Virus record (IMG/VR): IMGVR_UViG_3300032007_000060
Location: 18,229 to 82,228 of that record
Strand: one strand, 5' to 3'
Length of the DNA: 64,000 nt
Origin: a virus
Lineage: Duplodnaviria; Caudoviricetes
The position numbers and the translations under genes were made by a program. The notes below the pieces were generated by a model that searched no databases, had not been told where the DNA came from, and was given only the letters and a program-made list of their open reading frames with translations. Numbering within the stretch: the stretch's first letter is position 1; every line of letters begins with the position of its first letter. Positions 27,173 through 63,716 of this stretch are shown here, one piece after another.

Positions 27173-28363
27173 TTATTTTTCACTTATCCTTTCAAGAATA
27201 CTTTCACGAGTAACTGGTTTGTCATCTATCTCATCCAATCTTTTTTCAATAACATTCATACGAGATTCCATTTCCTTAACTTCAGACTCTTTCTCATGAT
27301 ACTTAACTTCCAACTCTTGATATTCTGGACTCTTAATATCAATATTATTAACATTTTTCTCAATAAGCAAACATGGGAAATGCTCAACATATTTTTTCAA
27401 AAGTACAGTTGGATCATCTAAAAAATAAGCTGCTCTTGTAGTTGACTTGGTTCTGCCTTGCAGCGCATCAATATCAGATTCACTCATACCAGATTTCCTG
27501 AGATGATTTGAATGAAATTTACGCATCATGTGACTGCGGAAACGATTAAAACCATCACTTGCTTGACCAAAGTTAAACTGGTCATTGTACCGGTAATATG
27601 CAACTGGAATGTAGTTTTCTTCTTTGTCAAACAATTTATCATCGTCTGATAAATTAATAAGTTTCAAGGTTCCGTCTTCAAGTGTTTCTACACGGTCTGT
27701 TAAAAGATATTCAACAATTTTATCAACTGCTTCTGGAGTGCAGAAAGTGTAATAATATTTATTGGTTTTTTCTCTTTTCAGTTTAAAAGTAGGAATAACA
27801 TTGTCTAAATCTTTTAAGATTAGTAATGCTTCGATTATATCGTTTTTTCTATGGAATGGGTAGGTTGCTTTTTTGAATTGACCTATAGTCATTTCGATTG
27901 TTTCTTTTCTTGCGCATCCGGTTGATATTTGGAATATTAATACTGCTTGGAACCATAGTGGTGCAACGTGTAATACTTGGCTTATTTCTTTGTGTGTTAA
28001 TAGTTCGTCGAAAGTTACTTCCCCGGGGATGTGGAATCCCCGTGGGTTAACTTTTGTTAAGTCTCCTATTTCGATTTCAAAGTATTTGTATACTGCAATT
28101 ACTTGTGTGAAATATGTTGATACTGTATTTTTTTTGTAGTTTTGTATTAGGTAGTTTCTGAATTGCAGTAGTCTTTTTTTTAGTGTTCTACGTTTCCATC
28201 TTACTCCTTTTTCTTCTTCTGTTTCTGCTTCGTCTATTAATTCTTCCATTGTTAAACCATGGAATTTTGAGTATTTGTTTATTGCTCTGGTGTAGATTTC
28301 ACGTGTTTTTGGATCATGGTTTTTTACTAGGAAGAATTCTTCGAGCAATTCTTCGTTTCTCAT
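27173..28363 (-). CDS. tyrosine recombinase/integrase A
   Basis: STGCARKE, KREKT, RSHMMRKFH, LQGR, terminal AAY catalytic Tyr. Confidence 0.9.
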   Translation of the reverse strand: MRNEELLEEFFLVKNHDPKTREIYTRAINKYSKFHGLTMEELIDEAETEEEKGVRWKRRTLKKRLLQFRNYLIQNYKKNTVSTYFTQVIAVYKYFEIEIGDLTKVNPRGFHIPGEVTFDELLTHKEISQVLHVAPLWFQAVLIFQISTGCARKETIEMTIGQFKKATYPFHRKNDIIEALLILKDLDNVIPTFKLKREKTNKYYYTFCTPEAVDKIVEYLLTDRVETLEDGTLKLINLSDDDKLFDKEENYIPVAYYRYNDQFNFGQASDGFNRFRSHMMRKFHSNHLRKSGMSESDIDALQGRTKSTTRAAYFLDDPTVLLKKYVEHFPCLLIEKNVNNIDIKSPEYQELEVKYHEKESEVKEMESRMNVIEKRLDEIDDKPVTRESILERISEK

Positions 28364-28984
28364 GTTTTATCTCTCTATGTGTTATATTTATATAAAGTAT
28401 TAGAGAGAGCATTTGATAAGTAATGTTTATCATATTTTTGGACATATGGTATATATATTATTGGGAATATGATAAACTATTGTATGTGCTTTTTTTGTTT
28501 ATCATATTCGTGGTAGTATAGTATAAATATTGTTCGAAATATGATTAACTTTGCTTCTCTCTAACGGTTGTATTTTTTGTGTTTTGAGAGATAAATAGGT
28601 AATTATACAGTGATGTACTTTTTTGTACATCATTGTTTATCATTAACAATTGTTATACTACGCATTAGAAATATATAACACATGATATAAAAACATTATG
28701 ATTTCAAAATCAACATCTTACCCGAAAGATCAACTTCCAACTTATCAACAATAACATGAGAAATACCATCCTTATCATGATACTCCACACTAAAATCATC
28801 AGGCAACTTATCAACAAAATCCTTTAAATCTCCAATAGTCAAAACTGTCATGTATTATATATTATAAAAATAATCCTAATAAACATGTTGAAAAACCATC
28901 ATGAGGATTAAAAAAAAAGTAAAGTTTAAGACCTAAATATACCTCATGATGAAAATTCAACTTTAAACCATCACCAAATAGAAT

Positions 28985-29009
28985 TCAACCTACGTACCAG
29001 GTAGGTTGA
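28985..29009. repeat. perfect 9-7-9 inverted repeat, att/recombinase core-site candidate
   Basis: TCAACCTAC GTACCAG GTAGGTTGA between the two recombinase genes. Confidence 0.45.
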
Positions 29010-29094
29010 CAATTAATACTATCCTCCTTAACCTATATAAATAAAGTGAGAGAGAGCATTTGAAAAGTATTCATAAACAATAAATAATAATATT

Positions 29095-30132
29095 ATGTAT
29101 CACAGTAAACTATTCACAAAATTTTGTAAAGACCGAAACGTTAAAAAAAGCACCAAAAAAGGTTATGAATCCGCATTAAAAAATTATACCCGATACCATA
29201 ACCAAACAATTGAAGAACTAATACAAGAAGCCCAAACTGATGAAAAAAACAAAATAATCCTAAAAGATAGAAAAATCAAAAAAAGATTACTCAAATACAG
29301 GACCTATTTATTCAGCAGCAACAAATCACCAAACACAATTAAAACATACTTCACTAGGGTAAAAACATTCTATGCTCATTTTGAAATTGAAATCCCAAAG
29401 TTACCTGATGCAAAATATGATAAAATCTATGAAACCAACTACATGGACCTACCTACAAAAGAAGATATCCGCAAAGTATTAGATTTGGTAACAGTAGACC
29501 TCCGCAGCATAATATTATTCATGTCATCTTCAGGAACTGCCAAGGCAGAAACATTAAGCATTACCATAGAACAATTCATCAATGGAACACGTGACTACCA
29601 CAATGGTGGAACCATCCAACAAATACTAGAAACATTATCAAAAAAGAATAATATAATTCCAACATTCTATTTGAAAAGAATCAAGACAGATAAATACTAT
29701 TACACTTTCTGTTCCCCTGAAGCTGCATCCGAAATCGTCAAATATCTTCAAGTCAGAAGTGACTTGAAACTTGATGATCCACTTTTCAACTTCACACCAG
29801 GAACATTATTAACTCGATTCCAAGAAATAAATGACCAACTCGGATGGGGATTTAAAGGCAGTTATAGGTTCTTTAGAAGTCATACCTTACGGAAATTTCA
29901 TGCAAGTAATATAGGATTATCTGCTGAATATATTGACAGTTTACAGGGCCGTAGTAAAAATGAGATACATGAAACATATATTAAAACCAATCCTGAAAAG
30001 TTAAAGGAAATCTACCAATCCGCAATGCATAATGTAATGATATATAACAAACCACGTGAAGAACATGTTACTCAAGAATTCACAATAGTGATTAATGTAT
30101 TCTTATCAGGTAAAGAGTATAATATAATTTAA
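29095..30132 (+). CDS. tyrosine recombinase B (candidate invertase)
   Basis: SSGTAKAE, KRIKT, RSHTLRKFH, LQGR, ETY; paralog of recombinase A; 1.7 kb from the shufflon. Confidence 0.85.
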   Translation: MYHSKLFTKFCKDRNVKKSTKKGYESALKNYTRYHNQTIEELIQEAQTDEKNKIILKDRKIKKRLLKYRTYLFSSNKSPNTIKTYFTRVKTFYAHFEIEIPKLPDAKYDKIYETNYMDLPTKEDIRKVLDLVTVDLRSIILFMSSSGTAKAETLSITIEQFINGTRDYHNGGTIQQILETLSKKNNIIPTFYLKRIKTDKYYYTFCSPEAASEIVKYLQVRSDLKLDDPLFNFTPGTLLTRFQEINDQLGWGFKGSYRFFRSHTLRKFHASNIGLSAEYIDSLQGRSKNEIHETYIKTNPEKLKEIYQSAMHNVMIYNKPREEHVTQEFTIVINVFLSGKEYNII

Positions 30133-30847: not shown

Positions 30848-31732
30848 TTAACCATTATACAGATATGCTACACTTTTCTGACTAATACCATTAATATATC
30901 TTTTCTGTGTACTTTTTGTTCTGGTTTCAATATAACCACAATATGTGCCTGAGCCGCAGCTGTCTCCCAGACTGTTTAAGATTTTTAAATCATCACTAAC
31001 AGTTTTAATGACTTCATAATGACCCCATTGGTCACGATAGAGCAAATGGAAAAATACTGCTCCTTTACTTATCATGGTTTTGATTTTATCCCATGATAAT
31101 TCAGAGAAGTTGTACCAACTGATCTTAACATTTTTACTGTATTTTTTGTTGAACATTGCAACTGCAGTATTAATACCTTGATGTCCGGTGCCGTCACTGG
31201 TAGTTGAGGCCCATCCTGCGATTGTTTTTTCGGATACTTTTATTCCAGTTAGGCGATAGAATGCTTGTTGTAGACTGTTACATGCACAGTAGTATCCAGT
31301 GCATTGGCCCATTCCTGAACAACCATGTTCTGTTAAATATTCATGTAATTTAGGTATTTTTTCATATGAAACTTTTATTTTACTTGGATTTTTTCCATGT
31401 TGTTTTCTGTAAGAAGTTAATGTTTTTGCAATGTTTCGGTATGATGCTCTGTTGTATTTGTTAACTCCGCTTGAACCCATGACATAACCAGGTAAATTTT
31501 CTTTAGCAGTTTTGCTAATAACATCTTCCATGAAACGGCTGATATATTCATCATGACCGTAATCTGTACCGTTCTTTTTGATTAATGCTATAATGTCTTT
31601 GTAACTTTTTTTCTTTCCGTTAATGGTTATACTATCTGAATGTTTGAATGATTTGCCGGATTTAATTAATTTGTAGGCTACTCTGCATAATACATTCTTA
31701 CAACCTTTGTAGCTTAGTTCTTTTGTTGCCAT
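30848..31732 (-). CDS. endolysin: pseudomurein-binding repeat plus C39-like peptidase (PeiR-like)
   Basis: PMBR-like YRNIAKTLTSYRKQHGKNPSKIKV; catalytic YYCACNSLQQ, WGHYEVI, ILNSLG. Confidence 0.75.
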   Translation of the reverse strand: MATKELSYKGCKNVLCRVAYKLIKSGKSFKHSDSITINGKKKSYKDIIALIKKNGTDYGHDEYISRFMEDVISKTAKENLPGYVMGSSGVNKYNRASYRNIAKTLTSYRKQHGKNPSKIKVSYEKIPKLHEYLTEHGCSGMGQCTGYYCACNSLQQAFYRLTGIKVSEKTIAGWASTTSDGTGHQGINTAVAMFNKKYSKNVKISWYNFSELSWDKIKTMISKGAVFFHLLYRDQWGHYEVIKTVSDDLKILNSLGDSCGSGTYCGYIETRTKSTQKRYINGISQKSVAYLYNG

Positions 31733-31822
31733 AGTTTATCACATCCTTTTTTTAAATTTTTAAATATTATTTCTTCCAAAAAAAATGAATTTTCTATTTT
31801 TTATGTTTTATTCATGGAATCA

Positions 31823-32167
31823 TCAGCAAATACCTCCTCAATACAGATTAAAGTTAAAGGAAAAAAACTTGTTGAACAATTAAACAATAATAAAATAAAA
31901 GTATATGTTATAGATGGAACTCATGTTTGTATTGGAATATATGGTGATTCATTTACTTTAACTGGTCAAAATACCACGATTGGTACGGTAAGTAATCTAT
32001 ACAAACCATTAGCAAGACAAGTAGTACTTGCACATAACTCCATTAATTCAGATAAGTTGTTCTTTTATGAAACAGGTGAGATCATATATGTGAGACTTAC
32101 TGGAAGTGCTACAACTGGTACTGTGAATAGTGGATTTTATTGTCCTTTGTTAAATCCATTGTATTAA
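31823..32167 (+). other. silent tail-fibre tip cassette 1 (114 aa)
   Basis: starts in frame at TCAGCAA (SANTSSIQIKVKG); YKP motif; homologous to the C-terminus of 33536..34423. Confidence 0.85.
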
Positions 32168-32176
32168 CGTACATAT

Positions 32177-32512
32177 TCAGCAAGTACTCAGAATACACAG
32201 GTTAATGTTACTGGATGGAAAAGAGTAGTGTATTACAGTAACAATAATAATAATTTTGAAATTTGGACTGACGGAAGATTAGCCACATATATTGTGAATA
32301 CAAATAATTTCTCTGTATCTGCTAACGTTTCTCAAACATTAACTTCCTTTGATAATAAATATGCTCCAATATATGTAGTTGGAATAAAAACAATTAATAA
32401 TCATCAAAAAACTGCAGTAATAGTTGATAATCAAGTGTATATACAATCTACAGATACTGATGGTAATATGTGGGGTACTGCAACAGTACTATTAAAAAAG
32501 TCACTATATTAA
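32177..32512 (+). other. silent tail-fibre tip cassette 2 (111 aa)
   Basis: SASTQNTQVNVTGWK...KYAP...; in frame from TCAGCAA, no start codon at the site. Confidence 0.85.
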
Positions 32513-32521
32513 CAATATTAT

Positions 32522-32842
32522 TCAGCAAATAATTCATCTATCCAAGTAAAAGTAGGAGGATGGCAATCCCGAGGAACCATTGCAACTGGTGTCAAATTAT
32601 ATGTAAATGGAGAAACAAGAACTGCAATGGTAACGGGAGTTAATATATCTCTTTCTGCAGGTGCTGAGGAACAGACTATTGCTGAAATTCCATCTGCATA
32701 TGCTCCTATTGAAAGTACAGTTACAGGAACTGCATTTAATTATGAAAGAGTAATGGTTAGAACTAATAATCGAGCGGTTAATGTTTATAATTTTAATAAG
32801 AGTATTACAGGATTATCATTTACTATTCTATATCCTTATTAA
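32522..32842 (+). other. silent tail-fibre tip cassette 3 (106 aa)
   Basis: SANNSSIQVKVGGWQ...IPSAYAP...LYPY*. Confidence 0.85.
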
Positions 32843-32856
32843 AATAAAGAATCTCT

Positions 32857-33183
32857 TCAGCAAATACTGCATCCATTCAAATTAAAGCGGATGGATGGAG
32901 AACCATCTCTACTGCTAAAGGAACATTAGAAGTTAATGAAGCATTACAATTAGCTCATTTTACATGCAGTGAAAATGTTAGCTTCCCTACCACTTCATGG
33001 CAGTTTATTGAAAAAAATAATATCCCTTCACAATATAAACCATCAAGATACATAAATGATGTTAATTTTATAGGTAGTGGCAATCAGGTATATGCTGCGC
33101 AAATCACTAAACAAGGTCATGTAATGGGATACTCCAATTATGGGAACGCTCTTATTACAATGGATGTAACTTGGAAATATTAA
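32857..33183 (+). other. silent tail-fibre tip cassette 4 (108 aa, absent from ORF track)
   Basis: translated by hand: SANTASIQIKADGWR...IPSQYKP...MDVTWKY*. Confidence 0.85.
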
Positions 33184-33212
33184 AACTAAACTTCTATATT
33201 CTATTGAATTAT

Positions 33213-33539
33213 TCAGCAAATACCCACAACACAATACAAATCCTTGTAACTGGATTTAAACAAGTACAATCACTTGAAAATGATAAAATTAAAGTATACT
33301 TCAACGGAAGAACAGTATATATTGATATATGGGGAACATTCAACATGACAAGTGGAAGTGTGGGTACAATAACCACAATATCTAAAGAATATGCTCCAAA
33401 AGGTAAAGGAGGTGTTTATTCAAGTCCTTATCCTGCAGGTTCTGAAAAAGTATTTATCAATTCAGATGGTCAGATACAATATTATCCTGGTGGATCAAAC
33501 AAAAGCATTTATGCAACATTACAATATACAATAAGTTAA
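33213..33539 (+). other. silent tail-fibre tip cassette 5 (108 aa)
   Basis: SANTHNTIQILVTGFK...KEYAP...IYATLQYTIS*; stop overlaps the stop of the expressed gene. Confidence 0.85.
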
Positions 33540-34423
33540 TATTTCCATTGTAACGTAGCATAAACCCCCACATTAGTTATTGCAGATCCAGTATAACTAT
33601 ATCTAGATACTTTCCCATTCTCGTTGACTTGAACAATTGCTCTATTCCCTACAAATATATGACTAACAACGGGGGTAGCTGGTCGGTATCCTGCAGGCAC
33701 TACAAATCCTCCGAACTCTTCGGGGTTTGCAGTAATAATTGTTGATGCAATATGAATTCGGAGTTCACATAATTCATGATTATATGAGAAAGTATAATCA
33801 GAATTGTTTGTTGGTGTTTTCCAACCTTTAACATTAATTTGAGTTTGAGAATTATTTGCTGAAAACGTGGTTAATCCCCAAGTGTCTGCAGTATAACTCA
33901 ATTGAAAAGTACCATTAACACCAGTTGTTCCAGACTTCCAAGTCGAGTTATTCTTCAAGACAGGAACAGTCACACCAGTCACTGGTCGACCTGTGGCCCT
34001 GTTAGTAACTTTCACTGTAATATTAACACTACTGTCAATATTCACATTATATGCTGAAGCTGTGATTTGATAATCATATAAATTAATAATCTGACTTACC
34101 GGATGAGTGTGACTTGCTGGAGCATAAGCGGATAACTGTGAGACTTTTGCAAAATCAGAAGATACGAAACCGGATAGTTTAGTTGCATTAATTTCTTTAG
34201 ATTCATTAATATTCTCAAGTATTTCCTCTAATCTTTCCTCTGTGAAATATGTTTCATCAATTACTGCTAATTGTGCCTGCATTTCTGCTAATGTTTCAGC
34301 ATTTGCTACACTAATACTTCCGAGATTATCTCCGCTTGTTGAGATAACAGTTACTTCTGCTCCGATGATTCTTCCATCATCTTCGCTATATGTTCTTACA
34401 TTAAAATCAACCATTGTTACCAC
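33536..34423 (-). CDS. tail fibre / receptor-binding protein, expressed allele (187-aa constant part plus 108-aa variable tip)
   Basis: ASHTHP fibre motif, Ig-like segment, crossover at TTF-SANNSQTQINVKGWK, tip with PAGYRP. Confidence 0.85.
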   Translation of the reverse strand: MVTMVDFNVRTYSEDDGRIIGAEVTVISTSGDNLGSISVANAETLAEMQAQLAVIDETYFTEERLEEILENINESKEINATKLSGFVSSDFAKVSQLSAYAPASHTHPVSQIINLYDYQITASAYNVNIDSSVNITVKVTNRATGRPVTGVTVPVLKNNSTWKSGTTGVNGTFQLSYTADTWGLTTFSANNSQTQINVKGWKTPTNNSDYTFSYNHELCELRIHIASTIITANPEEFGGFVVPAGYRPATPVVSHIFVGNRAIVQVNENGKVSRYSYTGSAITNVGVYATLQWKY

Positions 34424-34425
34424 CT

Positions 34426-36852
34426 TTATACTTTGTATTCTATCCAGTTTTGTTTAATTCTTACTTGTTTATCCGTATTCTCTCCTCTTGTTGCAGTATA
34501 ACCAATAGCAATACCTACATCTTCAAGGTTTGGAGTATAGATTACTTCCAAAGTATCATTTGGGTTTAGTATTGTACTGTAATCATTATCATTGATTATG
34601 TCAAAGATTATTATTCCTTTTGTATAATCTACTGTGAAATCAGTATCCTCTACAAGTTCTATTTCATTATCAGTATCCTTATTCAGGATGACGCTACGGA
34701 TAGGGTCGACTGGTGAAACACGTAACGGTACTTGACGAGTTTCAAGTATTGAGTCACCAACTATGAAATCCTGTTTGAAATAATCAATAACTAATGGATT
34801 GTTAATATACTTACCAGTACTGCTATTGTATACTTGACCTATTTCTGATTGTACAAGGTCTTGTATGAATACTGGATTATAACTGAATGTTATACTTCCT
34901 ACTGGTAATTTAGCGATTACTGCTTCATCTAATACTATAGTGTCATTGGTATAATCTACATTATAATCGTACCATTCACCAAGGTTCCATGAGCCCTCGT
35001 CTCCTCTTGGTTGGAGTGAACATTCAAGGATTGGATATGCTGGACTATTCTTAAGATGGAATGGAGTGTATACTTTATTATCTTCTTCATCTAATGTCCA
35101 GAAGCTCATACCATGCTCTTCCTCAAGGTCATCTTCCCATGGTAATACATATACTCTTTGTTCCCTTAGTAATTCAATAGCGGAAGGATTATCAATGAGA
35201 TACTGGTAACGTACATCCAAATCATCATCAGTAATCTTATCCTCATCTAAACCAGTAATCCAAGTATACTCATCTAATTCCTCTGCAGTGATTACTATGA
35301 AATGGTCAATTACTTGTTTTTCCTGGATGACTTCAATCTTACAATCAGTACTTGGATCAATGTTGACTGGTGCGAAAATACGGCCCCAATGTGACGCTCC
35401 TAACATGGCACCAGTTTTTGGGTAATAGTATTTAGTACGCACATACATTTGTTTTGGTAATCCACTGGTGAAGCTTGCTGTAATCTCTTGTATTGCAGGG
35501 GATTTAGTGTTATTAGTAGTCCACATTTTCACTCGGATAAATAATGTTCTTGGGTAGTTTCCTTCACTATCTGGACTGAATGCTTTCTTATGATTAGTTA
35601 ATGTACTCCATGTTCGACCGTCTACAGATACTTCATATTGTAGTTTTCCAGGATAACTTGAAGAATCCCCACTATCAGTACAGCTCAATGTGACTTCACT
35701 AAATGGATTGGTGTGTATTGGTTTCAAGTATAACCAATGGTCTCCAGTTACATATGTTGATGAGTCTTGTCTGATATTTAATTGGAATGCAAAATCAGAT
35801 GGTGTTAAACGGCCGAGATAATAATCTACTTTTAAGTCATTACGTCCGTATCTTTCCCATGTTCTTCCATTATTGTTACTGAGGAATGCATCTCCACCCA
35901 TATACTTTGAGTTTTCACAGTTACGACCCCATCCACCAACACGAGGACATTTACTCCAATTACTTAATGGGGACATAAAGACAAGGGCATATGATTCTCC
36001 AGCTTCAACTCTTGGAGGTTGAGGGAACGCAATGCTTACGAAACCTGGTTCAACAATACTTGGGTCAAATGCAGTTTCAGCAATACAATTATAAGGGTCA
36101 CCATCAGGCCAAGCAATAGTTTCAGTTTCACCAGCAACAGGAGTATTAGTTTGAGTTTTAGGGTCCCAAGTCATTTTAGGAACAGTAATTTCTTTTGTTT
36201 TCCATAACTGAACAATCAATGGACTTCCCCAATTACCATTATTACTACCATTATTAGCAATATGTAACGCTACCGCTTCTAATTTACCTCCTTTCCCTGA
36301 AGGCACAGTGAATGTTTGAGCACGGCAAACACTTGGGATTCCTTCAAGTTTATTATCCATAATCCAATCACTACGAAGAGTATAGGTTTCATTTTTATCA
36401 AAACCCACATACCAATGAGTGTTGATTTGACCTTCCGCCCAATTCTTAACTGACTGGTCTAATGTACCTGGAGTATTCGGCAATACAACCTGATCCACTA
36501 TGGTACCGGTAGTGTCATCAACATAATGGTCAATAACTGCAGTGGATTTATCACGGTCAACTACAGTATCATCATCAAAAGTAATAGTCCTTGATTTATT
36601 GGTATCAGTATCAAAGATGATTTCATTCTCAGTTGTTTGCATAAATCCATAACTGACTGTAGCATCTATTGGTATTGGATTAAATCGTTTACGTACTGCT
36701 GGTGGAGTGAGATATTCCACTTCATCTAATTTTTGTTTTAAGTATTCATCGTTTTGACAAATCTGCCTGAATAATTCTACTGTAGGATACATTTGCTCGC
36801 TGAAGGATTGTATCCTATTCAAATTCCTATATCGTGGTTCACAATTAACCAT
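34426..36852 (-). CDS. virion tail/baseplate structural protein
   Basis: 808-aa beta-rich ORF within the tail operon. Confidence 0.55.
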   Translation of the reverse strand: MVNCEPRYRNLNRIQSFSEQMYPTVELFRQICQNDEYLKQKLDEVEYLTPPAVRKRFNPIPIDATVSYGFMQTTENEIIFDTDTNKSRTITFDDDTVVDRDKSTAVIDHYVDDTTGTIVDQVVLPNTPGTLDQSVKNWAEGQINTHWYVGFDKNETYTLRSDWIMDNKLEGIPSVCRAQTFTVPSGKGGKLEAVALHIANNGSNNGNWGSPLIVQLWKTKEITVPKMTWDPKTQTNTPVAGETETIAWPDGDPYNCIAETAFDPSIVEPGFVSIAFPQPPRVEAGESYALVFMSPLSNWSKCPRVGGWGRNCENSKYMGGDAFLSNNNGRTWERYGRNDLKVDYYLGRLTPSDFAFQLNIRQDSSTYVTGDHWLYLKPIHTNPFSEVTLSCTDSGDSSSYPGKLQYEVSVDGRTWSTLTNHKKAFSPDSEGNYPRTLFIRVKMWTTNNTKSPAIQEITASFTSGLPKQMYVRTKYYYPKTGAMLGASHWGRIFAPVNIDPSTDCKIEVIQEKQVIDHFIVITAEELDEYTWITGLDEDKITDDDLDVRYQYLIDNPSAIELLREQRVYVLPWEDDLEEEHGMSFWTLDEEDNKVYTPFHLKNSPAYPILECSLQPRGDEGSWNLGEWYDYNVDYTNDTIVLDEAVIAKLPVGSITFSYNPVFIQDLVQSEIGQVYNSSTGKYINNPLVIDYFKQDFIVGDSILETRQVPLRVSPVDPIRSVILNKDTDNEIELVEDTDFTVDYTKGIIIFDIINDNDYSTILNPNDTLEVIYTPNLEDVGIAIGYTATRGENTDKQVRIKQNWIEYKV

Positions 36853-36879
36853 AATTATACACCATTATATTATTTTTTT

Positions 36880-37542
36880 TTATTTTGTTTCTATGATAAT
36901 ATTCTCCAAATTCGGATTACTATTACGTGTAGTATGAATATATAAGTTTTTAGTTTGAATTGAATAATAATAAGAACCGACTGTTGATTCAACATCTTCA
37001 ATACTGGACACAACTCTCAAACCACTGTTAGTATCCTTCTCCGTGACACCTACAACCAGTGCAGGTTCCGCTATCCAGTATGTATAATTCTTATCTGCTA
37101 CTTTGTTGAAATCTTTCCTGATGCTGCCTGTTGTTATTTCAAAAGTATAAGTCACATCTACTTCACCTATACTATCTTCCAGGAATGAGCTTGTCATTTT
37201 CTCATAAATATCATGACTGATTAATACATCATCATTAGCAACACCAATTTCACAGGTACCTAATACTTCACCGGCCTCGAATGTGGCCTCAAGTATGATC
37301 CGTTTATTGTTCAAATCAACACTTGATGTAACTTGTTTTTTGACAGTTAAATTACCAAGATTTACATCTGATTTTTTCGGCCTCGCATTGGATGAACCTA
37401 ACATTATATATTTAATTGGTTCAAAATGTTGATTCACTGCTCGATTCATAAAAAAAGACTCACCTAATAGAGTAATAAGATTATTACCTTCAAGGATTAT
37501 CTTATCTTTTTGTTTAAAAATATAACTTCCTTTTATTTTCAT
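36880..37542 (-). CDS. baseplate/tail-collar-associated protein
   Basis: GNNLITLLGE...IKYIMLGSS...EIGV pattern typical of tail-fibre-proximal proteins. Confidence 0.5.
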   Translation of the reverse strand: MKIKGSYIFKQKDKIILEGNNLITLLGESFFMNRAVNQHFEPIKYIMLGSSNARPKKSDVNLGNLTVKKQVTSSVDLNNKRIILEATFEAGEVLGTCEIGVANDDVLISHDIYEKMTSSFLEDSIGEVDVTYTFEITTGSIRKDFNKVADKNYTYWIAEPALVVGVTEKDTNSGLRVVSSIEDVESTVGSYYYSIQTKNLYIHTTRNSNPNLENIIIETK

Positions 37543-37814
37543 AATAGTTTCACATCCTTACCTTTTATCTTTAAACAGGTATGAATTTCCAAATCATTCT
37601 TCTCAGACATTTCCTCTGTAGCTAAATTCACATGAATACGAGTTGATAAAGGCATTAATTTCTGTAATCTTTTCTGCAAACTATCTGCCGTTTCGGTTTG
37701 TATATTCGACGGAATATCAGAGGGGTTAAAACTGATTTCGTAATTGTTTGGTGTCCAATCTGGTTCATGTCTTATTATTTTACAATTAGGATTTCGTGGC
37801 AAAAATATCACCAA
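37539..37814 (-). CDS. hypothetical baseplate-region protein
   Basis: 91-aa ORF coupled to the downstream gene. Confidence 0.5.
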   Translation of the reverse strand: MVIFLPRNPNCKIIRHEPDWTPNNYEISFNPSDIPSNIQTETADSLQKRLQKLMPLSTRIHVNLATEEMSEKNDLEIHTCLKIKGKDVKLL

Positions 37815-37838
37815 TTATTTTTTTATTATTTTTTCTTG

Positions 37839-37949
37839 TTATTCTTCTTCTAATGCACATTTGTTTTTCACTAGGTAGCAGCATTTTTCTAAGTCATGGT
37901 CGCAGGTTCGTCTGTAACAGCAGCCGTCACAGAATTCTTCTTTTTTCAT
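37839..37949 (-). CDS. small Cys-rich peptide (36 aa, not in ORF track)
   Basis: GGAG RBS then MKKEEFCDGCCYRRTCDHDLEKCCYLVKNKCALEEE*. Confidence 0.5.
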   Translation of the reverse strand: MKKEEFCDGCCYRRTCDHDLEKCCYLVKNKCALEEE

Positions 37950-38056
37950 TTTAATCAACTCCATTGAGAATTTTTTTGATGAATTATTATAAGTATGAAT
38001 ATTTCTTGGGAAATGGTGTTGGTGATTTAAATATAAAAGCTGAATGTAACTTAGTA

Positions 38057-38515
38057 ACAGAAATATTCGCTCTTCAAGATTGTTGGGATTACGATACCAC
38101 TACCCGTAACCTTGCACCAAACAGTAGTCTAAGCCAAATTGACAGTTTCGCATTCACTAATACTGGTGATTGGGAAGTGGAATGGATAATGAGATTACCA
38201 TCTGGTAAAAGTAGGGTAGTATTATACAATCCAAGCAATGCCAATGTCTTTTTAGGAGTGGGAGCAAGTGAAAACAATAACCGTGTTATTTACTGGTATG
38301 GTCATGAAGATGGAGAAACTCCTTATTCATACAATACCGATTACACTATAAAAATCCAAAAAGATGGCAGTAACTTTAAAATATACTCACAAGGGTCATT
38401 ATTAAAGACTATGACTTATAGTGATTTACTGAATACTTCTACCATCAATTTAGGTTTAAGGAATTGGGGTAGTGGAACTGGAACAATCCGTAATGTAAAG
38501 ATTAAACCATTATAA
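38057..38515 (+). other. silent alternative C-terminal domain (152 aa) of the adhesin
   Basis: TEIFALQDC...GTIRNVKIKPL* parallels the adhesin's TEIFALQDC...SKIKNVKFKSL*; tail-to-tail stops at 38510-38515. Confidence 0.85.
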
Positions 38516-39022
38516 TGATTTGAATTTTACATTCTTGATTTTTGAAGTTCCACTTGCACCCCATCTCATCATAGACATACAGTAATCAGTATAATTATCA
38601 ATCCAAGACAATATGAATGAGCCTATTAAATTATCATCAACATAAACACTTATGCTTGTTTCATCTTTAACAAATTTGACAGTATGATAAGTTCCTGATG
38701 TGGCAGTAACCGATGGGAAACCTACACTTTGACTGCTATTGTTCTCCCTTTTACCGAAAGCCATTTGATTATTTCTTAACATATCCAAGTAAATCGCATA
38801 TTGTGGTTGTGTTGTACCACTACTGTATTGTGTCTTTGGCATAATGAAGAAACGATGTTCCCCAGTACTAGTGTTATCAGACCATATATCAAAACTTATT
38901 TCACATTTGCTTGGTAATGATTGGCTTAAACTGTTATCATAGATTGTTGAACCATTGGTGGAACTTCGAGTAACTTCGGCAGTATTATAGTAACTGCAAT
39001 CTTGAAGAGCGAATATTTCTGT
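38057..39022. repeat. perfect 26-bp inverted repeat bounding an invertible segment
   Basis: ACAGAAATATTCGCTCTTCAAGATTG at 38057-38082 (+) and 38997-39022 (-). Confidence 0.9.
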
Positions 39023-41698
39023 GAATATTATTCCGCAATTTGCTTTTATATATAAATCTCCTGTACCTTTTCCCAAGTAAGATACGCTTGCCTCTCCAGA
39101 ACTATCAGTAACATCAGAACCAAGACTTTCACCATTCACAACTTCAAAACTTACAGTTTCACCAACACAAGGATTACCATTAGAATCCAATACTTTCGCA
39201 GTAATAGTGGCAGTTTCACCTTTCATCATAATTGGCTTGTCAGATGAAACTGTGATGCTTGCAGGTGCCGGACGGTCACTTACAACAACATTAACAATAC
39301 TTGATTCAACATTATTATAAGTGGCATCTCCTTCATATACTACTTTATAACTGAATGTTCCTGCGACAGATGAAGTGATTGATTTGCTGAATGTTCCATC
39401 ATTACCAGTGGTTAATTGAGGGTCTATGAGTGTATTACCATCATATAATTTGATATTTACACTTCCTAATCCTGAACCGTTATATAATAATGCACCAGAT
39501 AAAGTGTAGGAGTCACCAGTGGTGACACTTGCACTGCTGGTGACTAAGCTGATTGTTGGTGTGCGTTTTACAATAGTTACATTTACATCAGAAGAGGTTG
39601 CACTATCATAAGTGCCGTCTCCTTCGTATACGGCCTTGTATGTTTTACTGGATACAATGGAAGCGGTTAATGTTTTACTGAATGTTCCATTGTCTGTTGT
39701 TACTGTGTGGAGTAATGTTTCACCGTCATAGATTTTTACATCAACATCATCCATTCCTGTTGTACCAGTTTTTAATGTTCCTGATAATGTGATTGTTTCT
39801 CCAAGGTCATAACTGGATTTATCTGCATTGAATGTTATTGTTGTTGGTTTCTTATTCACAGTTATGTTTTCAGTTGCATTATTACTGTAATAATCTTCAT
39901 CACCTTCAAATACTGCTTTAATGCTAACTGCTCCACTAATATTTGCAGTTATATCTTTACTGAAGTTTCCTGCATTGCCTTGTGTTGTCACAGTATCCAC
40001 CAACGTGTTATTCACATAAATTTTTATACTTTTACCTGTTAAAGCTGTGAGTTCATCATCAGTTAATGATCCTCTTATCTCGATTGTTTCCCCGATAGTG
40101 TAGGTTGATTTATCTGTAGATAATGTGAGTATTGTACTTGTTTTACCTGCTCCTTCACTAATCACTACATATAATGGATTAGTATTCTTATTATTGTTAA
40201 TCCAGTTACTGTTACTTACTAATGTGCTGCTGGTGTCATGTGTTAATGTTATATCTTGCAGGTTCAATGATTGGTTTTGATATACTCTGAAGAATTTTAA
40301 TCCTACACTATTATTGATTGTAGGGTTTCCGCAGCCGAGTATTGTGCAAGTGTAGGGTACGTTATAGATATGGTCTGTTGAATGTGTACCTGAAGTTAAT
40401 ACGATGAGGTTTTCTTCACCATTCACCATTGACAGGGCCTTATCTAATGTAGCGAATGGGTCATCAATTTTACCAGTATTATTATCATTTCCTGAAGTGG
40501 AAACATACCAGTTACCCGTATTACATCCACGGACAGTGACTTCAAGAGTTTCCGTTTCAAAAATAGTAGGTCCTTCATAGGCCTCGAATTTAAAAACATT
40601 AGGAGCATCATCACTGATTAAATCACTGGTTACTGTATATTGTTCTCCAGTATAATTTTCGACGAGGACTGTATCTTCTTCATCACCCAATAATGTGATT
40701 GTTACACTGTAATCCCCAGTTAATTTCTCAGCAAGACTATTCAAGAATTGGAAATTAAATATTACATTCTGATTCTTAACAGGTATTAAAGTATTAGCTG
40801 ATACAAAGAAGAATCTTCCATTATCCGATGTTAATTCGCATAATTTGTCTTTATGTTCCCATGGCATTGGTGTCCAGTCACCGACAAGGCCTGTTTCTTC
40901 ATCGTATGGGTGCATATGTTCATCGAACATCTTTAAGAGGTATTCTTCTCTGTTTATCATGTCGCTGAAGATGCCGTATTCTTTCCATATTTCTAATACG
41001 GGTAATGCTGTGTTATGTATTCTGAGATTGTATTCTATGATACGGTTCATGTAATGATAATCATCTTCACTTAACCTGTTGTTGTATGGTGGTTCGGTAT
41101 GTTCATAATCTTCAGTACTTTTATATGTTTTTCTTTGTATGCCGTTTAATGCTCCGATTTCATCTAAACTGTAATCATGGTCGAATTCATTTCCCAATTC
41201 CTCATCGTTTTCAGGGAATCCTTTTTCAATAATGATTTCATCATATGCTTCGGCTATAATCTTAAAAGTATCATCAGGAATTATAGGAATTTCAATCTCA
41301 CTATCCTCTACTTCATTTTCTTCCTCATTATCTTCAACATTCTCATCAACAATTGTATTTTCCTCACTACTATCATAAGAATAAATGAAAGAATTAACAT
41401 TATCCTCTTCTAAGTATTCTTCCATATAGAGCAGAGTATCATTTTTATAACATTTCACACTTTTCAACTGAGGATAATTCACAACAAAATTAATAACATA
41501 ATCATAAGGCACACTTTGCTCCTTCCAAATACAACAACGCTTCCTTAACCTCAAACTATCAGAAACATCACTAATACTTTGAAAAATACCCTTCAAAAGA
41601 TTATTAGTAACACTCTGAGATTTAAAGAAATTACTTGTCTCCGACTTATCAAAAAAATGAGGAAACATCTTAATTAAACTTTGCATACTCCTTTTCAT
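38510..41698 (-). CDS. baseplate-anchored adhesin/tail fibre with Ig-like repeats and ConA/LamG-like tip
   Basis: WYVSTSGNDNNTG..DDPFAT motif; 3-4 Ig-like repeats (TITLSGTL...VKIYDG...T..NGTFS...Y.GD..Y); C-terminal beta-sandwich. Confidence 0.8.
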   Translation of the reverse strand: MKRSMQSLIKMFPHFFDKSETSNFFKSQSVTNNLLKGIFQSISDVSDSLRLRKRCCIWKEQSVPYDYVINFVVNYPQLKSVKCYKNDTLLYMEEYLEEDNVNSFIYSYDSSEENTIVDENVEDNEEENEVEDSEIEIPIIPDDTFKIIAEAYDEIIIEKGFPENDEELGNEFDHDYSLDEIGALNGIQRKTYKSTEDYEHTEPPYNNRLSEDDYHYMNRIIEYNLRIHNTALPVLEIWKEYGIFSDMINREEYLLKMFDEHMHPYDEETGLVGDWTPMPWEHKDKLCELTSDNGRFFFVSANTLIPVKNQNVIFNFQFLNSLAEKLTGDYSVTITLLGDEEDTVLVENYTGEQYTVTSDLISDDAPNVFKFEAYEGPTIFETETLEVTVRGCNTGNWYVSTSGNDNNTGKIDDPFATLDKALSMVNGEENLIVLTSGTHSTDHIYNVPYTCTILGCGNPTINNSVGLKFFRVYQNQSLNLQDITLTHDTSSTLVSNSNWINNNKNTNPLYVVISEGAGKTSTILTLSTDKSTYTIGETIEIRGSLTDDELTALTGKSIKIYVNNTLVDTVTTQGNAGNFSKDITANISGAVSIKAVFEGDEDYYSNNATENITVNKKPTTITFNADKSSYDLGETITLSGTLKTGTTGMDDVDVKIYDGETLLHTVTTDNGTFSKTLTASIVSSKTYKAVYEGDGTYDSATSSDVNVTIVKRTPTISLVTSSASVTTGDSYTLSGALLYNGSGLGSVNIKLYDGNTLIDPQLTTGNDGTFSKSITSSVAGTFSYKVVYEGDATYNNVESSIVNVVVSDRPAPASITVSSDKPIMMKGETATITAKVLDSNGNPCVGETVSFEVVNGESLGSDVTDSSGEASVSYLGKGTGDLYIKANCGIIFTEIFALQDCSYYNTAEVTRSSTNGSTIYDNSLSQSLPSKCEISFDIWSDNTSTGEHRFFIMPKTQYSSGTTQPQYAIYLDMLRNNQMAFGKRENNSSQSVGFPSVTATSGTYHTVKFVKDETSISVYVDDNLIGSFILSWIDNYTDYCMSMMRWGASGTSKIKNVKFKSL

Positions 41699-41699
41699 A

Positions 41700-42851
41700 T
41701 TAAATCATCTCAATTGTAATATCATTACTAACCCCAATTTCCTCATCAAGAATAGGAACATAATCCAAAGGATAATTAAAATTAATATTCTTTAACTCAG
41801 GAATCTCATCATCCAAAAACACAGCCAATTTATGCGGAATAAAATCCTCACCCAATAACAATCCCGGATAATAAGTATCATCAGTAGTGTATCCACCATC
41901 AATGAAAACTTTAATACTAGATATGATTCTTGCTTTGATTTTCTCTTTCTCAACATCACTATAAGGATTCAGTTGATCTATATCAACATTAACCACCGCA
42001 TAAATATCAATAGGTTTACTGACCGGTGCGAACATTGTAATATCTTCTTTTGCCTGAGTAACTTTACTCTGCAAATCCGCGTAAGCACGATTCAATTGTT
42101 CCGGTGTGCCTGGATCAAGTATGACTTTTATTGTACCAGTGCCATTCCAGAATGGAACAATCTTATAACTGTCTATACCGTCGAAGTTGGCGAAATATTC
42201 CTCGTAAGCTTCCAATGAACCTTTCAAGTTAACTTCCTTCCAATGCATCAACAAATAACGATATTCATCATCAGTATATTCCTCAGTACCACCAGTACTG
42301 GCCTTATCATTATTACATGAAAAATTAATTTCCAATTCAGTTTCAATATTAACCAAAGTATTTTCAACAATCTTACTAGCCACACCCGGCTCAACAGCCA
42401 TACATGAAACAGTAGTGCTGGTTTCACCTGCAGGAATAAAAATATTCTCCAACGTACGATATTCAATACCAGTATCAGTTGACAAGACCACTTCTTGACT
42501 AATATTCACATCTTCTTCAAGAACAACATCCAAAGTAAAAGTAACATCAACATAAGCATAAGTAGCTTCAGGTCTAGGAATACCTACCACATCACCAATA
42601 TTCTCATCCAAATCATCATTCTCCGCATACTCAACTTTTGCAGATTCATAAACTGGAGTTATTGCTTCCTGATAAATTCGTTCACCAAATAATGCAAGAA
42701 CAGACTTATCCATCACATAATAATTACTGATATCTTCCTGATTCTCAATATAAGAAGGAAACTCTTCAGCATGACTTATCAATCCTTTTTCAAGACTGTC
42801 CTGCAACACTTCTTCAAAAAGCTCAGCATAATCTTTTTCCGTATAATTCAT
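41700..42851 (-). CDS. baseplate J-like protein
   Basis: LDENIGDVVGIPR.EAT.A...V.C.A.EPG...N...STGGTEEYTDDEYR pattern. Confidence 0.85.
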   Translation of the reverse strand: MNYTEKDYAELFEEVLQDSLEKGLISHAEEFPSYIENQEDISNYYVMDKSVLALFGERIYQEAITPVYESAKVEYAENDDLDENIGDVVGIPRPEATYAYVDVTFTLDVVLEEDVNISQEVVLSTDTGIEYRTLENIFIPAGETSTTVSCMAVEPGVASKIVENTLVNIETELEINFSCNNDKASTGGTEEYTDDEYRYLLMHWKEVNLKGSLEAYEEYFANFDGIDSYKIVPFWNGTGTIKVILDPGTPEQLNRAYADLQSKVTQAKEDITMFAPVSKPIDIYAVVNVDIDQLNPYSDVEKEKIKARIISSIKVFIDGGYTTDDTYYPGLLLGEDFIPHKLAVFLDDEIPELKNINFNYPLDYVPILDEEIGVSNDITIEMI

Positions 42852-61695: not shown

Positions 61696-62071
61696 TTGAT
61701 TTTATAGCATCAGCAAGACCAGATAAACCTTTATGAGTAACATCAGCTTCAATTTTTTCACGTTTACCATACATGTTCGGATGTCTTCTTTCCAACATCC
61801 ATGCTGCAGCTTGCCAATGTTCCATACTTGCTGAAACAATGACCTGTTCAAAGTTATGTAACGCTTTATTTTTCGCTGTTTCAACACAATCTTTGAACCT
61901 CACATATTTCGTTCTAGTCTTTGCTTCTTTTGCTCTATTAATCCAGTTATAATAAGTTTTTTCATCAATTCCAACATAACCACAAGCCCCAAGAATACTA
62001 CTTCCATTTTCTATAGCTTCACAAAACTTAGCTTGCAATTCTGGGGTCAATTTCTGATTATATCTTGCCAT
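61658..62071 (-). CDS. terminase small subunit
   Basis: HTH (SILGACGYVGIDEKTYYNW), WQAAAWMLERRHP, directly upstream of TerL. Confidence 0.8.
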   Translation of the reverse strand: MARYNQKLTPELQAKFCEAIENGSSILGACGYVGIDEKTYYNWINRAKEAKTRTKYVRFKDCVETAKNKALHNFEQVIVSASMEHWQAAAWMLERRHPNMYGKREKIEADVTHKGLSGLADAIKSSEDKHRREDEGD

Positions 62072-62125
62072 ACTGGAACCTCCTTTTTTTATTTACTGGA
62101 AACACTGGATACAATAAAAAAAATA

Positions 62126-63139
62126 TTACGAAATTTTATCAAGAATATTATACCTGATATGCTCTGCAATAGCTTTCATCAGGTTGGGTGGTACACTATT
62201 TCCAATTCTTTCTTTGATTTGATTATCCGAACCTATCCACTTGAAAGTGTTAGGAGGATAAGTGAAAGATTGAAGTATACTGAGTTCCTGCACATCAAGT
62301 TCTCTGTTTTCTTTGTAATGGACCAATTGTGGTTTTCGTGTGATTGTTGGACATGGTTTATTGGGTCTTACCCTAAGACATTTGTAATGGAGAATGTCTC
62401 TGGGATGATTAAAGGTAATATGAAAATTATCTTCAAAGACATATTAACCCAATTAAAAGCATCAGGTTATGATGTTCGTGCAAAATTAATGAATGCACAA
62501 TATTATAATTGTCCTACAAGTAGGCAAAGGATGATTTTTATTGGAGTTAGGAAGGATTTAGGCATACCAGCAAGTCATCCTAAACCAACAAGTAAACCAA
62601 TCACAGTTCGTGAAGCAATTGGACATTTGGAAAATAAGATTAAACCTAATAATTCAAGTATTACAAGATATGCACATTACTTAAGACCAGGTCAAAAATC
62701 CGGTGACTTACCATATTTTCCAACAAAGACTCGGGATATTTATAGGGTATAACCCTCTGAGTAATCTAATATACTCATGATATAATTGATTTTTTGTATC
62801 GCAGAAATCTCGGGCTCCTGCGGTACTGAACCCTTGACATGGTGGTGAACCATCAAACAGATCAAGTTCTCCAGGTATTAGTCCTGTGGTTTCCAGTACT
62901 TTTTCAACACTTAACTTATGAATGTCACCATAATATACTGGTGTTTGTGGGAAGTTTCTTTGATATGTTGCTACTGCATGTGTGTCCATTTCTACAGCTA
63001 ATAATACTTTGTATCCTGCTAAATAGTAACCGTAACTTGAACCTCCGCATCCGCTGAATGTTGAAATTACTGTTGGTGGTTTATGAGTAGTCCTCTTTTG
63101 GGAGTTCATATCCACACCTTGGACAAGTAATGGTTTCAA
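62126..63139 (-). CDS. dcm: C5 cytosine DNA methyltransferase with an inverted central segment (OFF configuration)
   Basis: motifs I-IV (FSGCGG, EMD, GSPPCQGFS) on - at 62744-63139; motifs VI/VIII (FVMENV, TSRQRMIFIG) on + at 62375-62749; PCPTIT and motif X (RIGNSVPP) on - at 62126-62368. Confidence 0.9.
62365..62752. repeat. inversion junctions with a 7-bp inverted core
   Basis: TACCCTA at 62369-62375 (+) and 62743-62749 (-); hairpins GTCTTA-CCC-TAAGAC (62365-62379) and TTATA-GGG-TATAA (62740-62752). Confidence 0.85.
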
Positions 63140-63716
63140 TACTATCTGCTATGGATTCATCGTATTCTGGTTCGTCTTCTGGGATTATCATTGATGAGTC
63201 TAATGTTACTTCTTCATCGTTTTCTGCAAGTGTGTCATTGTTTAACTTGTTGTTTAATCCTGTGAAGCCAGTTATTTCAGAGTTGTCGAATCCGGTTAAA
63301 CCCATTTGGTTAAATCCTGATTCTTGTAAGTCGTTGAAGACTTGGTGTAATTTTTCTTCGTTCCAGTCTCCGCTTACACGATTCAATACTAGGTTTAATG
63401 CTTTTTCCATATCTTCAGATTCTAGGTTTTTGTCATTGTCTGGGAATACCCATCCGTAACTTTCGTTTAATCTGAGTAGGTTTACTTCAGCATATATGTT
63501 GTTATCTAATAAGTGTTGGTCGAATAGGACGTCGAATCTTTGATGTCCTCCGATTATACGATTATTAGATAGGTTGATTAGTATTGGTTCTACTATTCCA
63601 AAGTTATTGATACTGTTTTCTAGTTTCTTTTTTTCTTCTTTTGAGATTTGTCTAGGGTTGTAATTTGCTGGTACTAGGTCAGTTAGTTTTATTTTTTCAA
63701 TTTTCATCTTTTTCAT
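63081..63716 (-). CDS. ParB/Srx-like N-terminal domain protein
   Basis: IKLTDLVPANYNPRQIS...LENSINNFGIVEPILIN...IIGGHQR; C-terminal CPRC. Confidence 0.85.
   Translation of the reverse strand: MKKMKIEKIKLTDLVPANYNPRQISKEEKKKLENSINNFGIVEPILINLSNNRIIGGHQRFDVLFDQHLLDNNIYAEVNLLRLNESYGWVFPDNDKNLESEDMEKALNLVLNRVSGDWNEEKLHQVFNDLQESGFNQMGLTGFDNSEITGFTGLNNKLNNDTLAENDEEVTLDSSMIIPEDEPEYDESIADSIETITCPRCGYELPKEDYS

Follow-up and report, generated by a model that had tools for sequence, protein, structure and literature searches.

Analysis of a tail fibre gene in a tailed virus that we assign to rumen Methanobrevibacter suggests a programmed, reversible DNA inversion, two-state and site-specific, that would swap the receptor-binding tip of the fibre; we give this reading a probability of about 0.6. 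The gene lies in a stretch of 64,000 nucleotides (hereafter, the window, to which all coordinates refer unless stated otherwise) that forms positions 18,229 to 82,228 of the 82-kb IMG/VR virus record IMGVR_UViG_3300032007_000060, which is estimated to be 79% complete. The putative switch consists of two copies of a 26-bp core in inverted orientation that bracket two alternative C-terminal tips, one of which (c1) is joined in frame to the constant part of the fibre, whereas the other (c2) is silent and faces it from the opposite strand (Table 1).

Geometry of the predicted invertible segment

The segment spans 966 bp (38057-39022) and is bounded by a perfect 26-bp inverted repeat, ACAGAAATATTCGCTCTTCAAGATTG, at 38057-38082 (+) and 38997-39022 (-). 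With up to three mismatches tolerated, the 26-mer occurs twice in the window and not at all in 100 dinucleotide shuffles. The repeat can be extended to 46 nucleotides (nt) at 80% identity (38052-38097 and 38982-39027), and a second, degenerate inverted block of 42 nt at 81% identity (repeat I5; 37999-38040 and 39042-39083) covers the head residues upstream of the cores (YLGKGTGDLYIKA and FLGNGVGDLNIKA). Each core is translated as TEIFALQDC in the frame of its own cassette, following the heads YLGKGTGDLYIKANC and FLGNGVGDLNIKAEC, respectively. There is no open reading frame (ORF) between the two tips, the stop codons of which abut (TTATAA, 38510-38515). An initial annotation of this DNA had described the perfect repeat with TEIFALQDC in frame in both copies, degenerate homology upstream of it, modules of 170 and 152 amino acids (aa) lying tail to tail with abutting stops, and equivalent terminal strands, and each of these elements was recovered in the present analysis. 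Its description of the switch as two-state holds for this genome, where only two cassettes are present in the entire 82-kb record, but not for the system as a whole, given that relatives possess four or six.

Conservation of the core exceeds that of the sequence around it. All eight third positions of core codons 1-8 are identical between the two copies, whereas in the adjoining head the third position differs in three codons for identical residues. The 26 nt recur without any change at positions 200-225 of a 1.3-kb metagenome contig of the Joint Genome Institute (JGI; Ga0256405_10209046, denoted L008), where they head a different cassette with unrelated flanks, in a frame that opens only three codons upstream. 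This is the single exact match of the 26-mer among JGI metagenome contigs, and IMG/VR contains none. Because synonymous sites are identical and the same 26 nt recur in the unrelated L008 cassette while the flanks have drifted, and because the cassette cores of relatives match in inverted pairs, the pattern points to a protein-binding DNA site, that is, to more than shared coding.

In the present orientation, the constant part of the fibre (892 residues, comprising the N-terminal domain and Ig-like Big repeats) reads into c1. Under the proposed mechanism, a site-specific recombinase would pair the two 26-bp sites and exchange strands, probably within GAAATAT, flipping 38083-38996. The constant part would then read into c2, yielding a fibre of 1044 aa, and c1 would be parked behind the fixed silent head. 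Judging from secondary-structure elements only, the crossover would fall after the last Big_1 hairpin, probably in the first strand of the tip, so that any tip would fit. The enzyme would most likely be one of two paralogous tyrosine recombinases, rec1 or rec2 (27173-30132), with the other paralog probably serving a neighbouring shufflon (31822-34423). The virus population would thus carry two adsorption specificities, hedging against variation of host surface glycans.

The fibre gene and the alternative tips

The fibre contains four Big_3_5 domains (Pfam, E-value 3.9e-24) and a Big_1 domain at residues 826-887 (E-value 1.3e-10), and its gene is located directly downstream of Baseplate_J. Because of this position, we conclude from the gene context that the 1062-aa product is a tail fibre or receptor-binding protein and not a cellular adhesin; "adhesin" was the label of the initial annotation. 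Homologs of the N-terminal part of the fibre are encoded in proviruses of 15 Methanobrevibacter metagenome-assembled genomes (MAGs) from cattle, goat and deer guts (15 of 16 matches), and the public runs containing the stretch are bovine gut metagenomes. A megablast search with 37500-42000 against GenBank phages produced no match, and the nearest GenBank records in a tblastn search were distant Methanobacteriales viruses only. By these sequence affinities, the source is a tailed virus of rumen Methanobrevibacter.

The two tips are homologous to each other (32% identity, E-value 3e-15) and have similar C-termini, ..KNVKFKSL in c1 and ..RNVKIKPL in c2. An AlphaFold2 (AF2) model of c1 alone, built from an alignment of 22 cassettes, reached a predicted local distance difference test score (pLDDT) of 80.6, and a longer model that includes the last Big_1 domain (mb7917211c6db) reached a pLDDT of 90.5 and a predicted TM-score (pTM) of 0.84. 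When the c1 model was compared with the PDB using Foldseek, the matches included galectins (among them galectin-9), CBM66, the lectin domain of Emp46p, GH16 and PL7 (E-values 5e-7 to 1e-5; query-normalised TM-scores 0.45-0.6), and comparison with BFVD retrieved ConA-like and LamG-like tail proteins. The tips are accordingly modelled as a ConA-like lectin/glucanase fold, a two-sheet jelly-roll beta-sandwich, where c1 alone was folded and the fold of c2 is taken from its homology to c1. No Pfam or NCBIfam family matched the tips above its cut-off; a Pfam SusE match to the plus-strand ORF was rejected because its score of 20.5 bits falls short of the cut-off (25.2).

The longer model assigns the last Big_1 hairpin (strands 70-76 and 81-89) to YLGKGTGDLYIKANC and the strand that follows it (97-102) to FALQDC; the sandwich starts beyond this strand, which places the core at the domain boundary. 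From this model, we infer pairing between the first tip strand and the conserved strand ..IKNxKIKPL at the C-terminus, which would account for the conserved ends of the cassettes.

The silent cassette lacks a conserved start codon, and no promoter is visible for it. Eight strain differences in c2 were listed, from a minor strain in runs X1 and X2 and from run X7; in this sample, which holds the best-supported differences only, seven of the eight are synonymous and one is Ala>Ser, a bias that supports maintenance of c2 as a coding sequence. Tips of the c2 type, 90-98% identical, occur in six other contigs, where they are called only as an ORF of 108 aa starting at an internal Met, and the cassette there lacks a usable start. 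A Big-repeat fibre with a constant part only 34% identical to that of the present one (P0001) bears a c2-type tip (84% identity) that is attached at SETYTIEDC, which is the same junction; c2 is thus a genuine fibre tip.

Tip exchange among related viruses

Three IMG/VR contigs encode fibres that are 62-64% identical to this one up to the core and then diverge. These contigs carry two (L004), four (L006) or six (L005) cassettes in alternating orientation, so that tails face tails and heads face heads, and every one of the cassettes ends in ..IK.L. In L005, the cores match in inverted pairs (TTTTCCGAAATAT, TTCTTCAGAAA and TTCACAAAAACATAC). The head of the terminal cassette, KYEYF.G.G.GDLYIKAEC, is kept in four genomes, although in the inversion model it is never joined to the fibre; in L004 and L005, the terminal cassette has a stop codon directly upstream and no start codon. 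A search of IMG/VR with the pattern of this conserved head returned only the three known relatives, and the array is absent from more distant ones (L012 and most MAG proviruses). A provirus in a goat Methanobrevibacter MAG (L020; JAFQXD010000029.1, 13110-14021), with a fibre only 32% identical, contains in the equivalent place a 37-nt inverted repeat (81%) that includes CAAGAAACATTCG, and a backward cassette of 176 aa behind the fibre gene; the design thus reaches beyond close relatives.

The 90%-identity cluster to which the fibre belongs has 31 members. The 15 fibres that were read are 96-99% identical over residues 1-870 and end in at least seven unrelated tips, with similarity breaking within the head or the core. 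Two contigs from different metagenomes (L007 and L004; 3300019375 and 3300021288) share 100.000% identity across 8710 nt, up to the sequence TCAGAAA in the core, immediately behind which they diverge. The L007 contig (1-8823) stops 113 nt past the divergence, as an assembly of a mixed population would.

Several tips that are silent in one contig are expressed in another: P0096/P0035 (96% identity), P0103/P0027 (94%), P0104/P0061 (92%) and the second cassette of L006 with P0015 (L006_c2/P0015, 85.5%). P0061 is a member of the cluster of the present fibre, and the silent versions of these tip types are short ORFs that start just before the core. Tips of the c1 type (55-93% identical) are found on Big-repeat proteins of 597-1848 aa (P0010, P0019-P0021, P0026-P0028, P0035, P0039, P0041 and P0050), some of which also contain leucine-rich-repeat (PF13306) domains. 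On these similarities, the pool of tips may be common to different viruses and perhaps also to adhesin-like proteins of the host.

Candidate recombinases and the neighbouring shufflon

No match to the serine recombinase family (PF00239) was detected in the 82-kb record (79% complete), whereas 12 of 14 control genomes matched. The record encodes three tyrosine recombinases. The true integrase is probably the one located outside the window; two divergent paralogs, rec1 and rec2, would then be available for inversion. These two are 37% identical to each other and lie back to back, with the replication genes on one side and the lysis/tail module on the other, 8-11 kb from the invertible segment. 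Syntenic orthologs of rec2, 85-86% identical, are present in G001 and G003, the only two relatives that reach this region; a second, diverged recombinase lies beside each, and both viruses carry arrays.

The neighbouring shufflon (31822-34423) is part of the same genome, appears to follow the same principle and has the same pair of candidate recombinases. It belongs to another fibre protein (295-aa gene, 33536-34423), and its five silent cassettes are all in one orientation. The sites of the two arrays resemble each other (TCAGCAAATA versus ACAG-AAATA) but are of different types, TCAGCA(A/G)(A/G)TA in the shufflon versus (A/T)C(A/C)(A/G)AAA(T/C)AT here. The two arrays keep these types separate in the window as well as in a relative (L009), in agreement with the original proposal that the repeat differs from the shufflon core and may switch independently. 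At the sequence level, the distinct site types fit two systems with two enzymes and independent switching. A broader scheme, in which the genome contains several independent inversion switches (the two fibres and a methylase inverton), each with its own paralogous, integrase-derived tyrosine recombinase and its own site, is possible but rather doubtful. The short sites compared for this scheme (TCAGCAAATA versus ACAGAAATAT) are one base apart in spacing, and a repeat search of 61800-63500 revealed no clear inverted repeat for the putative methylase inverton.

Evidence against inversion and alternative explanations

Several observations weigh against a programmed inversion. Among the assembled contigs, none represents a flipped copy of this virus. 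The public runs were searched over 36500-40500 as assembled Logan contigs only, which drop minority forms and therefore carry little weight here; none of the contigs of any run contains a junction at the cores, and in runs X1 and X2, the likely source sample, the contig crossing the left core has the parental order. No fibre that joins this constant part to c2 was found in the protein collection, where the search for longer proteins bearing c2 gave P0001 only, with recombinant forms of this fibre absent from its results. Two contigs encode the identical 1062-aa fibre, and two the identical 178-aa silent ORF, which suggests that a second assembly shares the present orientation. As for the enzymes, no recombinase gene adjoins the segment, box I reads SSGTAKAE (Lys) in rec2 versus STGCARKE (Arg) in rec1, and an ortholog of rec2 with 65% identity is encoded by G005, a virus without this switch. 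Because of this ortholog, and because the rec1/rec2 family is common in Methanobrevibacter genomes, the assignment of rec1 or rec2 to this segment is put forward only as a hypothesis based on sequence. Finally, among the relatives, the tip of L007 is neither of the two cassettes of L004, so that this pair shows exchange at the core but not inversion; the heads within the fibre cluster are mosaic, with breakpoints at SV(S/Y)Y, GDL.IK and the core, a pattern that also fits homology-driven exchange; and the best inverted repeat of L005 (34/35 nt) lies in the head, not in the core. The initial proposal that flipping the 966-bp segment swaps ConA/LamG-like tips is therefore upheld with respect to the in-frame cassette-switch architecture and the ConA-like fold, but not with respect to a flip in this virus, of which no flipped copy was found.

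A contig of run X7, a bovine run from another study, connects 39128 (-) with 38005 (+), outside the cores and with a short side of 49 nt. This join was rejected as proof of inversion and is read instead as a related strain with another type of head, like that of P0061. In the same run, contigs over both tips (38054-38950) have a depth of 39-43 compared to 16-25 for the flanking genes (approximately 2x). The depth and the join could reflect two arrangements, or two viruses with common tips.

Homology-driven exchange is a serious rival to programmed inversion, because the heads are mosaic and the best repeat of L005 is in the head, even if on balance we regard it as unlikely. Under this scenario, the cassettes are a silent reservoir from which gene conversion or homologous recombination draws without the help of a dedicated site-specific enzyme: the head of about 100 bp (YLG..GDL.IK...EI.A..DC) would be a homology patch for RadA-type recombination of the host, within a genome or between co-infecting relatives, and the inverted orientation would only guard the array against deletion. 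The occurrence of several breakpoints among fibres that are 96-99% identical speaks for such exchange, as do the presence in L007 of a tip that is missing from the L004 record and the sharing of tips by fibres with constant parts only 34-81% identical; the lack of a recombinase gene adjoining the segment points in the same direction. Programmed inversion better accounts for the core itself, because 26 bp is short for homologous recombination, and because the core is identical at synonymous sites and in the unrelated L008 cassette although its flanks have drifted. It is also favoured by the inverted pairing of cores in relatives and by the retention of two extra divergent tyrosine recombinases beside the tail module despite a canonical integrase elsewhere.

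The locus could also be a fossil, descended from an active array but now fixed, such that expression is always that of c1 and c2 is decaying as a remnant. The detection of the parental orientation only, and the two cassettes left here versus four to six in relatives, are compatible with such a history, but all 152 codons of the c2 frame are intact, its eight listed strain differences include seven synonymous ones, both cores are perfect and c2-type tips persist at 90-98% identity in six other contigs, all of which makes decay improbable. Least probable is that the plus-strand ORF (178 aa, ATG at 37979) is a separate gene for a free lectin-like protein and the repeat a trace of paralogy only: although an in-frame ATG exists, gene callers predict the 178-aa protein on two contigs, and the signal of purifying selection is also compatible with an expressed gene, this start is not conserved (the homologous cassette of L004 and L005 opens after a stop without a start codon, the frame in L008 opens three codons before the core, and six other contigs give only the internal-Met call of 108 aa), no clear ribosome-binding site precedes 37979, and the protein would begin with a copied fragment of the Big_1 hairpin that is structurally senseless alone.

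Other features of the locus

Directly downstream of the cassette pair, at 37839-37949 (-), lies a Cys-rich ORF of 36 codons (MKKEEFCDGCCYRRTCDHDLEKCC...), with eight Cys and a GGAG ribosome-binding site, which is missing from the list of larger ORFs. About 80 nt upstream of this ORF, the opposite strand of the silent head (37979-38056) contains GCTTTTATATTTAAATC, which resembles an archaeal TATA box; on this resemblance, the silent head may double as a promoter for downstream tail genes. A protein of 294 aa with a Cys-rich C-terminal half is encoded at 30848-31732 (-). It has no Pfam match and a weak PHROG endolysin match (4.8e-5), which leaves its reading as a pseudomurein endoisopeptidase unconfirmed; the product is probably a lysin for the pseudomurein wall.

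Table 1. Features of the predicted tip switch, the fibre gene and the candidate recombinases
Feature	Position	Strand	Remarks
Tail fibre / receptor-binding protein gene, 1062 aa	38510..41698	-	Constant part, residues 1-892; expressed tip, residues 893-1062
Left 26-bp core, proposed crossover site	38057..38082	+	Head of silent cassette; identical 26 nt in L008
Right 26-bp core, proposed crossover site	38997..39022	-	Inside expressed gene; TEIFALQDC = residues 893-901
Predicted invertible segment, interior	38083..38996		Both tip bodies tail to tail, stops abutting at 38510-38515
Tip c1, 170 aa from core, expressed orientation	38513..39022	-	ConA-like beta-sandwich in AF2 model
Tip c2, 152 aa from core, silent orientation	38057..38512	+	Stop at 38513-38515; homolog of c1
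Fixed silent head, MNYYKYEYFLGNGVGDLNIKAECNLV	37979..38056	+	Copy of last Big_1 hairpin; would stay put on inversion
Matching head in expressed gene, YLGKGTGDLYIKA	39042..39083	-	Last two Big_1 strands; inverted repeat with 37999-38040, 81%
Terminal-cassette head in relatives	L004 9805-9879; L005 11914-11985; L006 6107-6170		
Baseplate J-like protein	41700..42851	-	Pfam PF04865, E-value 9.6e-23; puts fibre gene in tail module
rec1, divergent tyrosine recombinase, 396 aa, candidate invertase	27173..28363	-	phrog_1, E-value 1.8e-17; PF00589, 19 bits, below cut-off
rec2, divergent tyrosine recombinase, 345 aa, candidate invertase	29095..30132	+	phrog_1, E-value 1.2e-14; XerA-type NCBIfam, E-value 8e-11, below cut-off
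Third tyrosine recombinase, outside window	G000:8267-8779; also noted as G000:C1:8189-9178		Only one above PF00589 (Phage_integrase) cut-off

Comparison with known inversion systems and implications

The Rin shufflon of Bifidobacterium prophages, reportedly described by Mavrich and colleagues in 2018, and the R64 plasmid shufflon with its recombinase Rci both rely on a tyrosine recombinase that acts at short inverted sites to exchange, in frame, the C-terminal cassettes of a single surface or fibre protein. As in these shufflons, the element analysed here encodes a tyrosine recombinase, and its relatives have more than two cassettes (four in L006 and six in L005). Unlike them, this record has only two cassettes and a recombinase that is not adjacent, and the cores of the relatives vary by pair, with no single common site. 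The G segment of Mu (Gin) and the C segment of P1 (Cin), which alternate host range, depend on serine invertases with an enhancer and Fis, and have a separate chaperone gene (U/U') for each variable part. The present locus has a similar two-state layout, with the crossover inside the fibre gene (residue 893), between a constant and alternative C-terminal parts, but there is no serine recombinase in the record and no second gene in the segment.

Invertible tail-fibre modules with the recombinase Int1 are present in the haloarchaeal viruses phiCh1, phiH1 and ChaoS9 (Rossler et al. 2004 as cited in PMC8371274; PMC6471424). In the phiCh1-type module, the gene for the recombinase is flanked by two convergent fibre genes and forms part of the region that inverts (PMC6471424). 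In both cases, the virus is an archaeal tailed one, the enzyme is a tyrosine recombinase (a candidate here), the choice of the fibre C-terminus is made (here, putatively) by inversion, and the second copy has the opposite orientation. In contrast to that module, nothing lies between the tips here, where the stops abut at 38510-38515 and the candidate enzymes are 8-11 kb away. Furthermore, unlike the haloarchaeal host of phiCh1, the host here is a methanogen with a pseudomurein wall, and the ConA-like tips are mounted on a Big-repeat stalk; the comparison is one of layout, not of sequence. By analogy, the locus would work like the switches of Mu/P1, Rin/Rci and phiCh1, but it lacks the features that define the serine-invertase family and the phiCh1 layout.

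To our knowledge, programmed fibre inversion in archaeal viruses has been known only from haloarchaeal viruses. Our literature search found no description of invertible elements, shufflons or DNA inversion for Methanobrevibacter viruses, with Medvedeva et al. 2023, which may describe such cassettes, being outside its scope. Inversion is not mentioned in the MSTV1 paper (PMC11375127).

The locus marks the fibre tip as a determinant of specificity, and shows that these viruses share a circulating pool of lectin-like tips that can be interchanged. In the rumen and the human gut, methane is produced mainly by Methanobrevibacter, and how viruses recognise this host is little known. The 26-bp site and the two candidate recombinases provide a concrete, testable mechanism for a switch of host range, with relevance to virus-host dynamics in the rumen and to any attempt to target methanogens with such viruses or with their binding domains. 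If the more tentative scheme of several independent switches were true, a single virus population would contain independent, combinatorial variation in host range and DNA modification, and the system would be the first with multiple switches to be described in a methanogen virus.

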